IMG/VR virus record: IMGVR_UViG_3300031853_000009
Span: 32,001-96,000 of that record
Origin: a virus
Taxonomy: Duplodnaviria; Caudoviricetes
DNA: 64,000 nucleotides
Reading direction: 5' to 3' (one strand)
Part shown: positions 54,054 to 58,192 of the stretch, piece after piece
Numbering within the stretch: the stretch's first letter is position 1
How the letters are laid out: each line of letters starts with the position of its first letter
Notes under the pieces: generated by a model
Database searches by the model: none
What the model was told of the DNA's origin: nothing
Seen by the model: the letters and a program-made list of their open reading frames with translations, nothing else
Translations under genes and position numbers: made by a program

Positions 54054-55733
54054 CTAATTTTTCTTATTCTGAGTTCCAGCGACCACTTTACTTGTCTGTT
54101 CACTTACTAGACCTCCTGTTTTTCTCCTACGTTTCTGTGAACCGTTTTTATCCCAATTCTGATACCTGTCACTAGATTCAAAATTACCTTGATGACCTTG
54201 GAATTTACCTTCGAACCTATTCTTAAAGTCTTGATTACCAATAGGATCACCTGAACCATAATTTACAGTAGCCTGAACGGCTGAAGGGTCAGGTACTACA
54301 GGCATACTGTTGAGATAATTTTTAATATTGTGGTCTTCTTCAAGGAGAGTAACATACTCTTCAAAGGAGATGGTCTGGTCGAGGAGACCTGAAGACACTA
54401 AATACCTGTGTACCAGTTGGAGCGGGTACACAGAATTACCAACACCAGTAGCCAACTCTCGCATAACATTAGCGTCAGGTGTTCCAAGTACCAGAGAGGA
54501 AGGAGCGTCAATCACTACTTCATTTACATCATAGCCTCCCCATTCGCACATCATCTCTAGACAACTGCGAATAGCAGAAAGAGCAGAAAGGTAAATTGAA
54601 TACACAGAAGCAGACTGAGTAGCTTGCCTAATACGAAGAGCTTCAGCTGCCTCTACGCCTTTTCGAGCGTCAAGAATGGCTACACCATGACGAATCGCTT
54701 CTTCATACAAAGTGTCAATATGTTTCGCTACATGATTCAAAGCCGCTGTATCGGTCGTAGTATAATATACTCTAGCCTGTGAGTCAGGGAGAGCAAAAAG
54801 AACAGAGGAACCAACAACATTAGGTACGTTTTTGACATCGCCTGCTGAATCTACTTCTGCACCAGAGATACAAAGAGTAGGGTTACAAGAGAGAAATTCA
54901 GAGTTAGCCAAGTCTGCTTGCTTCCTATAAATTTGAATAGCACAGTTAGCCACAGGAATCAAAGGAATAGGCTGAATTTCTGGAGCATTACTAATACTTC
55001 CAGCGATAACAATGGGGAGTTTATCTAGGTTATTTCCGAAGAACTCAGGAACTACAGTCTCATCTTCTACCTCTTTAGAAGATGAGTCATAAGTAACTAC
55101 AGTGTACTTATCCCCTACAAGACGCATAACCCTGTAGTAATCTTCAGTCTCATGTGAAAAAATGTTGTCTGGATTTTTATACCTTTTCTGACGAATAACG
55201 GCTACCTGAATAGTTCTTTCATCGTTTAGAGTACCCGATTTCCAGTTGATTAAATCTTCGGCTTTATACTGAACGATGGTGAATCTATCTGGATTCGAAT
55301 CATCTAAGTCAACGACAAGAGGGACACGACCGGTCTGCATAATCTCAATGATAACGTCCAAAAAGAGTTGACGAAGATCGCGACCATCTCTTGTGGCATT
55401 ATCTATAAGGTATTCAAGCTCTTTAGGAAAATTAAACTCAGGCAGCTTAGTAATAATAATACCGAGTACACCCTGAAGAGCATAAGCTGTAACAAGAGGA
55501 AAGTGCGCTCTTTCTATATAGTCATTATAGGCTTCTGCGTATTCCCCTGACATACCTGCCGGTCTAGGTAGGTACTTCTCAGCAGCATTTTTAATTGCTT
55601 GCTCTCCTTTCATACAGTCACGGACTCTTTCCCACTCAGGCAGACGTACTATATAGTCAGGATGTTGAGTAGTAGCACCTCCGCTAGCAGAGCCTGTGGT
55701 ATTATTATATAAATTATTTACTTTCTTTGGCAT
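54054..55733 (-). CDS. Portal protein (DUF4055-like)
   Basis: HPDY..W..VRDC..G..IK..YLP..YNDYIERA; follows TerL. Confidence 0.85.
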   Translation of the reverse strand: MPKKVNNLYNNTTGSASGGATTQHPDYIVRLPEWERVRDCMKGEQAIKNAAEKYLPRPAGMSGEYAEAYNDYIERAHFPLVTAYALQGVLGIIITKLPEFNFPKELEYLIDNATRDGRDLRQLFLDVIIEIMQTGRVPLVVDLDDSNPDRFTIVQYKAEDLINWKSGTLNDERTIQVAVIRQKRYKNPDNIFSHETEDYYRVMRLVGDKYTVVTYDSSSKEVEDETVVPEFFGNNLDKLPIVIAGSISNAPEIQPIPLIPVANCAIQIYRKQADLANSEFLSCNPTLCISGAEVDSAGDVKNVPNVVGSSVLFALPDSQARVYYTTTDTAALNHVAKHIDTLYEEAIRHGVAILDARKGVEAAEALRIRQATQSASVYSIYLSALSAIRSCLEMMCEWGGYDVNEVVIDAPSSLVLGTPDANVMRELATGVGNSVYPLQLVHRYLVSSGLLDQTISFEEYVTLLEEDHNIKNYLNSMPVVPDPSAVQATVNYGSGDPIGNQDFKNRFEGKFQGHQGNFESSDRYQNWDKNGSQKRRRKTGGLVSEQTSKVVAGTQNKKN

Positions 55734-55768
55734 GATGTTCTCCTCTGTTTTTAGTCAAAAAGTGACGA

Positions 55769-58192
55769 CTACATCCGTACCCCGCCTCTTTTCATAACAG
55801 AATTTTTCCTTGATACCAGATACCTAAGTGCATCTGTACAATTATGTACTAATACACCGTTCACAAAAAACTCATGGGAACCTTCTACTGTTATGTCGTA
55901 CACAGTACACCTATTTCCCGTGTCTGTTACGGACAGCACAGGCACGGCTACAGTGTTGCGTCTTACTGTACTTATTGGTAATAAACTCTTCTCCACAATA
56001 AATGCACACCCTGGTTTCATTGTCAATGCCGCTTGCCCTCCTCCATGCGGATTTGCAATTATTTGAGCAGAACTTGCTGACACCCCCAATTTTTTTATCC
56101 AGAAATGTTTTCCCGCACTGTGTACATACGTTCTCAACGGGGACGTAATTTTTATAAGAATTTGCACCGTTTTGAACGTGCCATTGATGACCTTCCTCTG
56201 AAGCGTGCCATTCTTTTGTAAGGAGTCTGATTCTAGCAAGATGTTCTTTCTGCTTTTGTTGTCGTTCTTCAGAAAACGGGTGTCTTGCACTATGTTCTTT
56301 CGGGTCAACACATTCCAAATTTTCAATGGAGTTATTAGCCGTATTACCGTCTTTATGGTGGATATGGCAACCTTCTGGAATTTCCCCATTATAGAATTTC
56401 CATACTTCCCTATGTAAATACAGGGCAGTTTCTTTAGTACTTCGCTTAAAATAGTGCCTATCGCTAGCGTTCTTACTGTTTGGGTATCTTCTATAAGTGT
56501 ACCCATTAAAGAATACTTTTTCAACCATAATAACTTATCTCCAACAGTTAATGAATCTGCGCGAACAAAACCTCTATTTTCTGTCCAAATTTTATGATTT
56601 GGCGTACATCTTATAGTGCAACACTCAGTGGAAATCAATAAAGTTTTGGCATTATAAGAAGTAACCCACCAGTCCGTAACAAACCTCCATCCGTCTCTAG
56701 TTAAAACTTCATCTCCTATTTTCACCTGTTCTATAGGGATATTCCCTTTTTTAGTTAATACTAACTCACCTTTGGCGATACAATGGTCTTCCAAGTCAGT
56801 ATCGATGTCTTCAGGATCAAACTTTGAAGTCTGCTGAATAGGAATAGTCCTAATATGATTCACAGCAGATTGAAAGAAGTACAGATGCGGTTTCTCTGGG
56901 TCTTTCTTTTTAGCATTCAATAGCATATCTCTAATAGCAGCCAAACCAGCTTTTCTAGAACCTGGACCTTTCATACTTCTCTGCCAGTACAGATTATATT
57001 TAGACATACTATTACCGATGCTAGTACCGTCTAGTACATTCCAAATGGAATTATCAGCGGGTCCCGGTTGAATCTTAATACTCTTCATAGTCTCTGTAAA
57101 CGTATCATAAGTACTGTGCAGTTTTTCCAACATTCTATCACGCTTTAGAGTACGCTGAGCGATTTCAGCGGAAGTAGCTCCATCTCCTTCATTAGGCTTT
57201 CCGGTCCAGCCATAAATCTCATCTATCACAATAACAGAGCCTACAGGAAGAGTAAAATCTAGTCCTTCAGGCTGCTCCCCATTACAAAACGCACCATAAG
57301 TAACACACCAAGGACGAGCAGAACCCCAGTCAAAACTTCTTTGCACTCTCCAAGAGTAAGGAATCTTAAAGGCAGGGGCAAAAGGATTACCGAACTCTTT
57401 AGATTTGAGAACGTGTATCTTTGGGTCCCATACAGAAGAAAAGAAGCCACCAAGGAAAATATCCCAAGAGCCATAGAGCCAAGCCTTTCGAAGGTTCTCA
57501 TTACCTTCGGTCATAGCTCTTAAGGTATTTTGGTAATCTGGAGTAGCCTCTAGAAGAGCAGCGTTTTCTGTAGTTGGCAAAAATACATGAGCGCGAGTCT
57601 TACCAAATTCATCAGTGTATATTCTACCTTCTGGCACAGTGTCAATGAATCTTGTTTTTACCCATTGAGCACCCACTCCACCGGGGTTACAATTAGCGCG
57701 ATATTTAAGAGGTACATTCTTATTAGAAGTACGAAGACAAGACATCAACATTAAATAGACTTCATCCGTAGGATGATTTGTTAATTCTTCCCATCCTATA
57801 AACGAATTTTCACTACCGTGATACATTTCATAATCGGCAGGAGTCCTTGCGTAATTAAACCACAAAAACTCACCATCTGGGAAAGTCCATACCTTCGTAG
57901 TACCGTTAAATTTAGCTCCGGGAAATAATTTAGGAAAGTATTTGAGAGACTTAGAGATAATATCTTTCAGTTCAGTCGTATGCTCCCTTAATATAAGCCC
58001 TCTGTAATCTGGTCCATAACCTTTTCCTATACCAGAAGCAAAATCCATGAGAAGGACATCGCTCTTCCCAGACCCTCTAGGCCCATGAAACAGAGCTTCA
58101 AATGCTGGACAAGTTAAAGCCCGTTCTTGCCCTCCGGGATTAGGCTTCCATACTATGTGCATTCCTCTATTCATTTTAATGCCTATCCTCAA
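55769..58192 (-). CDS. terL: Terminase large subunit, intein-containing
   Basis: GPRGSGKS, WEELT, NPGG, SFDWGS, EDH|..|CTDALRY. Confidence 0.92.
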   Translation of the reverse strand: MRIGIKMNRGMHIVWKPNPGGQERALTCPAFEALFHGPRGSGKSDVLLMDFASGIGKGYGPDYRGLILREHTTELKDIISKSLKYFPKLFPGAKFNGTTKVWTFPDGEFLWFNYARTPADYEMYHGSENSFIGWEELTNHPTDEVYLMLMSCLRTSNKNVPLKYRANCNPGGVGAQWVKTRFIDTVPEGRIYTDEFGKTRAHVFLPTTENAALLEATPDYQNTLRAMTEGNENLRKAWLYGSWDIFLGGFFSSVWDPKIHVLKSKEFGNPFAPAFKIPYSWRVQRSFDWGSARPWCVTYGAFCNGEQPEGLDFTLPVGSVIVIDEIYGWTGKPNEGDGATSAEIAQRTLKRDRMLEKLHSTYDTFTETMKSIKIQPGPADNSIWNVLDGTSIGNSMSKYNLYWQRSMKGPGSRKAGLAAIRDMLLNAKKKDPEKPHLYFFQSAVNHIRTIPIQQTSKFDPEDIDTDLEDHCIAKGELVLTKKGNIPIEQVKIGDEVLTRDGWRFVTDWWVTSYNAKTLLISTECCTIRCTPNHKIWTENRGFVRADSLTVGDKLLWLKKYSLMGTLIEDTQTVRTLAIGTILSEVLKKLPCIYIGKYGNSIMGKFQKVAISTIKTVIRLITPLKIWNVLTRKNIVQDTRFLKNDNKSRKNILLESDSLQKNGTLQRKVINGTFKTVQILIKITSPLRTYVHSAGKHFWIKKLGVSASSAQIIANPHGGGQAALTMKPGCAFIVEKSLLPISTVRRNTVAVPVLSVTDTGNRCTVYDITVEGSHEFFVNGVLVHNCTDALRYLVSRKNSVMKRGGVRM
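55841..56782 (-). mobile_element. Intein (314 aa) in TerL nuclease domain
   Basis: CIAKGELVLT..CTPNHKIW..LTVGD ... VYDITVEGSHEFFVNGVLVHN|C. Confidence 0.92.
55911..56528 (-). CDS. HNH homing endonuclease nested out-of-frame inside the intein
   Basis: LHREVW..IHHKDGNTANNSIENLE..EH; two CxxC..CSxxC Zn modules; GGAG SD 10 nt before ATG. Confidence 0.88.
   Translation of the reverse strand: MVEKVFFNGYTYRRYPNSKNASDRHYFKRSTKETALYLHREVWKFYNGEIPEGCHIHHKDGNTANNSIENLECVDPKEHSARHPFSEERQQKQKEHLARIRLLTKEWHASEEGHQWHVQNGANSYKNYVPVENVCTQCGKTFLDKKIGGVSKFCSNNCKSAWRRASGIDNETRVCIYCGEEFITNKYSKTQHCSRACAVRNRHGK

Follow-up and report, generated by a model that had tools for sequence, protein, structure and literature searches.

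A large terminase intein of an uncultured phage with a putative HNH homing endonuclease gene nested in a shifted reading frame

The gene for the large terminase subunit (terL) in the 64,000-nucleotide stretch of viral DNA analysed here (the window: bases 32001-96000 of the 110,104-bp IMG/VR virus record IMGVR_UViG_3300031853_000009, which has direct terminal repeats) is interrupted by what is very probably a composite mobile element, consisting of a class-1 intein that stays in frame with terL and a complete out-of-frame gene for an HNH_3/zinc-ribbon endonuclease lying inside it. A first-pass annotation, made from the sequence alone, had proposed such a dual-coded selfish element. Frame-specific selection, a start codon belonging to the nuclease itself, coexisting alleles of terL and a co-conversion tract in Acinetobacter phage Highwayman all support that proposal. 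The parts of the element and of its host gene are as follows, in window coordinates and with a slash marking each intein-extein junction:

55769..58192, minus strand: terL precursor open reading frame (ORF), 807 amino acids (aa) counted from the first possible start (TTG), which holds the intein.
56783..58192, minus strand: N-extein of terL, ending ..DTDLEDH; in the empty allele P0002 the uninterrupted sequence across the junction is ..LEEH/AIDSLRY.
55841..56782, minus strand: class-1 intein, 314 aa (C1 ... H313-N314, +1 Cys), matching Pfam Intein_splicing.
56519..56782, minus strand: N-terminal HINT lobe, intein residues 1-88, blocks A and B, placed from the beta-strand architecture of an AlphaFold2 model and from alignment.
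55955..56518, minus strand: read-through linker in the terL frame, intein residues 89-276, wholly inside the HNH ORF.
55841..55954, minus strand: C-terminal HINT lobe, intein residues 277-314, blocks F and G, with the conserved pattern ..VYD.TVE..HEFF.NG.LVHN.
55769..55840, minus strand: C-extein of terL (CTDALRY..., stop codon included), from the ORF list and alignments.
55911..56528, minus strand: gene for a homing-type endonuclease with an HNH_3 domain and two zinc ribbons, 205 aa and a TAG stop, read in the -1 (+2, 'frame 3') frame of terL.

The interrupted ORF matches PHROG terminase large subunit families at 1e-28 and 1e-24, and its N-extein is ~40% identical to the intein-less terL of Rhodobacter, Achromobacter and Pseudomonas phages, with many siphophages among the tblastn matches. 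The insert occupies residues 471-784 of this ORF, beginning ..EDH/CIAKGEL and ending ..VYDITVEGSHEFFVNGVLVHN/CTDALRY. The prediction of a 314-aa intein splitting the TerL nuclease motif EDH/CTDALRY, a conserved one, was confirmed by Pfam, where Intein_splicing (PF14890) scored 54.4 bits against a cut-off of 35.8. Block B reads TPNH, with the TxxH feature, and the C-terminus (..LVHN/C) carries the His-Asn pair and a Cys at +1; in an alignment of 35 homologues C1, H63 and N314 are invariant and T60 nearly so. An AlphaFold2 model built on natural-homologue alignments gave a predicted local distance difference test score (pLDDT) of 85-98 for the N-terminal lobe and 96-98 for the C-terminal lobe. 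The central stretch had been said to show no recognisable domain in the terL frame, and indeed we found no Pfam domain in this linker, which was modelled at a pLDDT of 30-74 (residues 91-274). We conclude that the insert is a class-1 intein with a HINT domain. Its splicing activity is predicted, because terL is essential and because its frame has been kept open in all 54 of the unique nested copies described below. Since no stop interrupts the terL frame of the window, the intein is contiguous and should splice in cis.

A profile search of both frames gave Intein_splicing in the terL frame and HNH_3 in the shifted frame. The HNH ORF matched HNH_3 (PF13392) with 62.9 bits against a cut-off of 24.8 (E 2e-17), as well as phrog_15471 'HNH endonuclease' at 8e-36, in agreement with the earlier assignment of an HNH nuclease with two zinc modules to 56528-55911; the same Pfam search returned no match to nuclease families other than HNH_3 and zinc ribbon, Endonuclease_7 (IPR004211) included. 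The two zinc modules are of the form CxxC...CxxxC. Across 45 homologues H57, H58 and H79 never vary, nor do seven of the eight zinc-ribbon cysteines; the eighth, C197, is nearly invariant, as are N66 and N70. Read in its own frame, the protein was modelled by AlphaFold2 with a mean pLDDT of 96.5 across all 205 aa. A Foldseek search of the whole model against the PDB returned nothing at E<=0.001 (I-HmuI appeared only at E 0.034), because the model is a multi-domain, extended protein; a second aligner, used in place of Foldseek, gave I-HmuI (1u3e) as the closest solved structure, with a Z of 7.9 and an rmsd of 2.8 over 73 residues, the next match having a Z of 4.8.

The HNH ORF covers intein codons 85-291, between the two splicing lobes and on the same strand. 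Its ATG starts on the third base of a terL codon, spanning the Leu-Trp codons tta/tgg, and its TAG (55913-55911) falls ~3 codons ahead of block F (VYDITVEG). The sequence bears out the first-pass annotation on the details of the GGAG, ATG and TAG, and both frames are open throughout, with no stop in the terL frame or in the HNH ORF of the window. At its 3' end the gene runs into the C-terminal HINT lobe, so that its last ~15 codons also encode the first strand of that lobe (the first ~15 codons of the lobe). Dual coding in which both products are functional is thus limited to ~3 codons at the 5' end of the HNH gene and ~15 at its 3' end.

Using the HNH protein as a tblastn query, we found homologues inside the annotated terL of Acinetobacter phage Highwayman, Tetrasphaera phage TJE1 and Clostridium phage phiCDHM19, all three of them cultured, and a scan of IMG/VR yielded 80 further HNH loci at 37-55% identity. 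The HNH is nested in a contiguous terL ORF of 700-1000 aa in 60 of the 84 loci collected with the window HNH; two further loci end at a contig edge and duplicate nested ones. A single frame relation holds throughout the nested loci: no nuclease reads in frame with the intein, and none uses the other shifted frame. Every one of these loci has intein blocks A, B, F and G, placed at one and the same terL motif, ..DH/C...HN/C.D..RY. The length of the insert is a multiple of three, and its terL frame is stop-free, in 54/54 unique nested copies. The HNH itself is intact in 52 of these 54, at 37-55% identity to that of the window. In the GenBank records of the three cultured phages (OZ038341, Highwayman; HQ225832, TJE1; LK985322, phiCDHM19) the region is labelled terminase large subunit only and the nested HNH is unannotated, because gene callers give only the long terL ORF.

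These features bear on the idea that the insert is a group I intron with an HNH ORF, its open terL frame being a coincidence. Nucleases of the HNH_3 family such as I-HmuI are typically intron-encoded, which is what this idea has in its favour. We consider it most improbable, given the in-frame intein blocks A, B, F and G with their Pfam support and the combination of a length divisible by three with a stop-free frame in every unique nested copy; moreover, no Rfam family, group I introns included, matched at E<=1 in 55500-57200, and the in-frame blocks leave no need for an intron.

An open frame opposite a conserved gene could be fortuitous, and we therefore measured how often it would be expected. 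In 20,000 trials in which the HNH protein was recoded with the codon usage of the window, the terL frame had a mean of 4.8 stops and was free of them in 0.21% of cases; when the synonymous codons of the HNH ORF itself were permuted, it was free of stops in 3.2%. The third frame over the window HNH holds 29 stops in the real sequence. Across the 54 unique nested copies the terL frame has no stops and the third frame a mean of 25; in the 20 unique copies found outside a contiguous intein, the frame corresponding to terL has a mean of 7.6 stops (range 3-14) and the third frame a mean of 21. Nesting in this frame thus calls for the smallest number of stops to be removed. In addition, synonymous changes in the HNH gene can remove every stop in this frame except that formed by an ATG followed by A. 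The ease of stop removal probably explains why the published cases likewise use frame 3 or +2.

In order to compare selection on the two frames we applied the simple Nei-Gojobori count to pairs of aligned sequences. Among full relatives, the one nearest to the window is L090, a 105.7-kb contig with 89% aa identity in the extein. Its HNH is intact, gap-free and 72% identical to that of the window, and the differences fall 44/40/96 at HNH codon positions 1/2/3. The proportions of nonsynonymous (pN) and synonymous (pS) differences are 0.183 and 0.758 in the HNH frame, and 0.307 and 0.237 in the terL frame over the HNH ORF, where aa identity is 45%, equal to that of the unused third frame (46%). 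Among nested pairs the ratio of nonsynonymous to synonymous rates (dN/dS) is 0.11-0.59 in the HNH frame versus 0.58-1.35 in the terL frame for the same bases, and in free-standing control pairs it is 0.08-0.14 in the HNH frame versus 1.5-2.1 in the frame corresponding to terL. Three saturated pairs gave no ratio for the HNH frame, pN being far below pS in each. In the linker, the terL-frame dN/dS is 0.6-1.35 when nested versus 1.5-2.1 when free-standing, a comparison between pairs that differ in divergence and saturation. The frame-specific dN/dS that had been suggested as a check on the proposal thus points to an HNH frame under purifying selection, and to a terL frame that over the HNH ORF behaves as non-coding apart from the avoidance of stops. 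The linker would accordingly be ~560 nt of unconserved, unstructured sequence merely kept stop-free.

The terL alleles of the window lineage came from a large protein search followed by alignment, and were compared by local blastn pieces. A DNA search of a phage collection with the whole terL gave only two short HNH-related matches and no close cultured relative of the window phage, and a search of IMG/VR for the N-extein locus gave a single relative, at 31% identity. Alleles with and without the intein had been called for, and empty, mini and full forms were all recovered. P0002 (92% identity, 491 aa) is the empty allele, reading ..LEEH/AIDSLRY. P0001/L091, with extein identity to the window of 99% at the aa level and 93.5% at the nucleotide level, has the same intein minus 504 nt, a segment that corresponds in the window to:

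55968..56471, minus strand: segment absent from the mini-intein allele P0001/L091, a 504-nt deletion between two copies of the 9-nt repeat ACAGTAAGA.

This deletion is in frame for both ORFs; the HNH core is gone, and a 134-aa mini-intein and a 35-aa HNH remnant are left. Another mini-intein is found in P0004 (88%) and a full allele in P0003 (89%). With 41 member sequences in the cluster of P0001 (L091/L092), the mini-intein form is a common one in public assemblies.

A nested pseudogene was also seen: in L035/L037 (3001-3624) two stops interrupt the HNH frame, where relatives have Tyr and Trp, while the terL frame is open and the intein otherwise intact. Judging from its sequence, this copy would be at the decay stage of a homing cycle. 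Disruption of the HNH frame in close homologues would have spoken against the proposal; the check turned up only one deletion allele and this one pseudogene, as expected of a decay stage.

Signs of mobility also come from the cultured phage Highwayman. Its terL (L001) has an exact 981-nt insertion relative to its Obolenskvirus relatives among the matches listed (~56 Acinetobacter records matched). Aligned over 1302 bases with that of phage Acba_21 (L089), its terL is 99.5% identical outside the insert. The first ~1050 nt match throughout, and the 15 mismatches are all confined to the 162 nt upstream and the 14 nt downstream of the insertion. The residue that follows the insertion changes from Leu to the +1 Cys. 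This cluster of mismatches is a co-conversion tract, the signature of homing.

Other intein-like inserts occur in the same group of terminases. In L095 (1294-2331, minus strand), the terL of P0005 (86% extein identity), a different intein-like insert of ~400 aa is found at HGAEF/C...NQN/CYIGWEE and the intein site of the window is empty. The centre of this insert has no domain in the terL frame, and an antisense ORF of 345 aa matches HNH_3 (2e-10) and several helix-turn-helix (HTH) domains. P0006 combines an insert of the P0005 type with a mini-intein at the site of the window. More distant terL relatives (P0008, P0010, P0060, P0062 and P0085; 53-63% identity) are 816-835 aa long and contain LAGLIDADG_3 domains, which shows that the same terL clade also hosts canonical in-frame LAGLIDADG inteins.

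Within the window, two elements immediately precede the HNH gene:

56539..56542, minus strand: Shine-Dalgarno-like GGAG, 10 nt upstream of the HNH ATG, within Gly-Asp codons.
56535..56537, minus strand: TAA in the HNH frame, 2 codons ahead of the ATG.

The arrangement GGAGAT-N10-ATG is identical in the window and in its nearest relatives L090 and L091. Further, an ATG stands at the aligned N-terminus in nearly all nested homologues, preceded by an in-frame stop 0-31 codons upstream, with the exception of the high-GC L003, where it is 90 codons away. These upstream stops, together with the ATG of the gene's own, favour independent initiation over frameshifting. RNA folding around the ribosome-binding site was not above chance (z-score 0.16), giving no regulatory hairpin. 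As a promoter scan upstream of the HNH returned no site above chance, expression must rely on the terL transcript, from which we infer that the HNH is translated separately. It is very unlikely that the nuclease is instead made by a programmed -1 frameshift, or that a sequencing artefact has displaced the frame of an HNH that in truth is in frame. A -1 shift, the kind seen in most programmed frameshifts, does lead into the HNH frame. However, the TAA closes the HNH frame to ribosomes arriving from upstream and so precludes an upstream fusion; and the same frame relation recurs in 54 independent unique sequences from many assemblies and isolate genomes, in every one of which an in-frame version would need two compensating errors.

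Relatives of the window HNH are also found outside contiguous inteins. In some loci, among them L041, L044, L050, L054, L065, L067, L069 and L073, the gene directly follows an intact, intein-less terL, as it does in the Yuavirus phages PAE1 and SN1. In these two phages and in several IMG/VR loci it stands between terL and portal, and in phage BP10 a relative lies upstream of terS. The sequence tattttgtatatttg was observed just upstream of the free-standing HNH in L044, L054, L065 and L067. It resembles the Bacteroidota promoter motif TAnnTTTG, which suggests that the HNH may be transcribed independently in those phages. In L081 (1156-3633) terL has a mini-intein of ~130 aa at the same site and a free-standing HNH homologue just past its stop; to judge by this layout, it looks like an intermediate in which intein and nuclease are neighbours and not yet nested. 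Finally, terL is present as two ORFs with an HNH homologue between them in L045, L047, L049, L058, L059, L064, L068 and L082. These split loci, at least eight in number (L064 ends at a contig edge), have one ORF with the N-extein and N-intein followed by one with the C-intein and C-extein; in all but L064, terL is counted as broken by stops that come after the N-intein. The C-intein of L049 is 35 aa long, like known split C-inteins, and its ATG overlaps the HNH stop. A quick maximum-likelihood tree, with weakly supported deep branches, intersperses these states and needs at least four changes between them.

Several points weigh against reading the insert as a composite homing element. The free-standing relatives always adjoin terminase genes, which fits homing into terL but fits a role in packaging too. 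The 10-nt spacer behind the GGAG exceeds the optimum, a Shine-Dalgarno-like core is present in only 16/50 nested homologues, and the negative promoter scan counts here too. Overlapping genes bias the Nei-Gojobori dN/dS, and several pairs are saturated at synonymous sites. Translation of the HNH, splicing of the intein and cleavage of the empty site are all steps that we infer.

The neighbourhood of terminase genes is what would be expected if the nested HNH mainly served the phage, for instance as a terminase-accessory packaging nuclease or as a weapon that cuts the terL of competitors, and were kept for that service. Free-standing relatives adjoin terminase genes in BP10, PAE1, SN1 and several IMG/VR loci, and Xu and Gupta (2012; PMC3592412) described zinc-ribbon HNH nickases beside terminase genes and suggested a role in packaging for them. 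We nevertheless think this explanation improbable. The HNH is sporadic among near-identical terL genes: of the ~56 matching Acinetobacter records, that of Highwayman is the only one to cover the greater part of the query, and the HNH is absent from the Obolenskvirus relatives of Highwayman among the matches listed. It is likewise absent or deleted in window-lineage alleles whose terL is 92-99% identical, and these empty and HNH-deleted alleles indicate that the phage does not need it. The co-conversion tract at the Highwayman insertion, and a fold and Pfam family shared with the homing nickase I-HmuI, also argue for homing.

The weak expression signals raise the alternative that the HNH ORF is an unexpressed relic, inside a fixed intein that persists because its precise loss is rare and with an open frame that reflects recent capture. 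Decay is indeed seen, in the two HNH-frame stops of L035/L037 and in the mini-inteins P0001 and P0004, and the gene has no promoter and only a moderate Shine-Dalgarno sequence. A relic is nonetheless quite unlikely, since the HNH-frame dN/dS is far below 1 in every nested pair that gave a ratio, with the overlapping frame near 1, 52 of the 54 unique nested copies are intact, and the protein, modelled with a mean pLDDT of 96.5, shows little or no variation at its catalytic and zinc residues.

Under the preferred reading, a composite intein with its own homing nuclease, the terL mRNA would be translated through the linker, and the intein, linker included, would be spliced out to give active TerL. 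Ribosomes would also initiate at the internal GGAG-N10-ATG to produce a nuclease of ~24 kDa. In a mixed infection this nuclease would nick or cut an intein-less terL at or near the insertion site, and repair from the intein-bearing copy would transfer the intein together with its HNH gene and flanking sequence. The probable origin of the nested form is the invasion of a mini-intein by a free-standing HNH gene adjacent to terL. It is also possible, though we hold this only tentatively, that contiguous and split terL inteins interconvert by loss or gain of linker stops over the same HNH gene. If they do, this HNH family would preserve in living phages a path from free-standing gene to mini-intein with a neighbour, to split intein, to a gene nested in the -1 frame, the frame being set by stop scarcity (7.6 versus 21 to remove), and the origin of mobile inteins and of natural split inteins would become directly testable.

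The window adds a large, cross-phylum example to the recently recognised inteins whose homing nuclease is a separate, overlapping gene. The occurrence of one HNH family in four settings (beside an intein-less terL, beside a mini-intein terL, within a split terL and nested) amounts to a natural series, which bears on how nucleases colonise inteins and on the origin of split inteins. The cultured pair Highwayman and Acba_21 makes homing and co-conversion accessible to experiment, and the mini-intein derivatives may serve as compact splicing modules.

The closest published counterparts are the actinophage inteins of Gosselin, Arsenault and Gogarten (bioRxiv 10.1101/2025.01.02.630785), in which an endonuclease VII-like nuclease lies "in reading frame 3 relative to the intein"; these authors also reported antisense LAGLIDADG and Vsr-like nucleases, and proposed that inteins are invaded by free-standing nuclease genes. 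The window element resembles their type D in having a same-strand frame-3 nuclease between the splicing blocks, an open extein frame and an unstructured read-through, and the genes in which their non-canonical inteins reside include terL. It differs in that its nuclease combines HNH_3 with two zinc ribbons, in an I-HmuI-like arrangement, whereas theirs belongs to Endonuclease_7; in that its hosts extend far past the actinophages, to Acinetobacter, Clostridium and Tetrasphaera phages, the 110-kb uncultured phage of the window and many metagenomic viruses; and in that its HNH family is also found free-standing, next to a mini-intein and in split inteins. A cyanobacterial dnaX intein with a LAGLIDADG nuclease in the +2 frame was described by Phillips, DeSimone and Gogarten (bioRxiv 10.64898/2026.09.14.751524), who credit Gorbalenya (1998) with having been the first to propose alternate-ORF nucleases in the dnaX intein. 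There, as here, dN/dS is low in the nuclease frame and high in the extein frame, and empty, mini and full alleles coexist; that system, however, pairs a cellular gene with LAGLIDADG, and the present one phage terL with HNH.

The split loci find a parallel in the fractured genes of Dassa et al. (2009; PMC2677866), where split inteins have a free-standing nuclease gene, GIY-YIG or Vsr-like, between their halves, and where HNH genes were only predicted to fracture genes too. As in those genes, the nuclease gene stands at the canonical endonuclease position and overlaps the coding region of the downstream C-intein, and split terL loci of this kind (L045, L047, L049, L058, L059, L068 and L082) hold relatives of the window HNH; unlike in those genes, the terL frame of the window is stop-free. 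Arsenault et al. (2025; PMC11855218) reported a 'hidden' out-of-frame HNH insertion, with no intein, in the DNA methylase of phage ShiLan. Both cases have an out-of-frame HNH ORF inside a host gene whose frame stays open, and both raise the same question of translation. In ShiLan there is no splicing domain and the read-through peptide is retained, whereas here the intein would remove it, and the ShiLan ORF has a GTG start without a ribosome-binding site in place of the GGAG-N10-ATG of the window.

With I-HmuI (PDB 1U3E), the nicking homing endonuclease of phage SPO1, the window nuclease shares an N-terminal sheet and HNH core, 23% identity and the Pfam family HNH_3. I-HmuI is encoded by a group I intron and has helical and HTH DNA-binding modules, in contrast to the helical hairpin and two CxxC...CxxxC zinc ribbons of the window protein. 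A literature search, which covered some but not all journals, turned up no account of terL inteins with a nested nuclease of this HNH_3/zinc-ribbon family. The architecture as such has already been published, out-of-frame and antisense intein nucleases being known (Gosselin et al. 2025; Phillips et al. 2026), as is a hidden out-of-frame HNH (Arsenault et al. 2025). What is new is the nuclease family, its breadth across phages, and the occurrence of one family free-standing, inside split inteins and nested.

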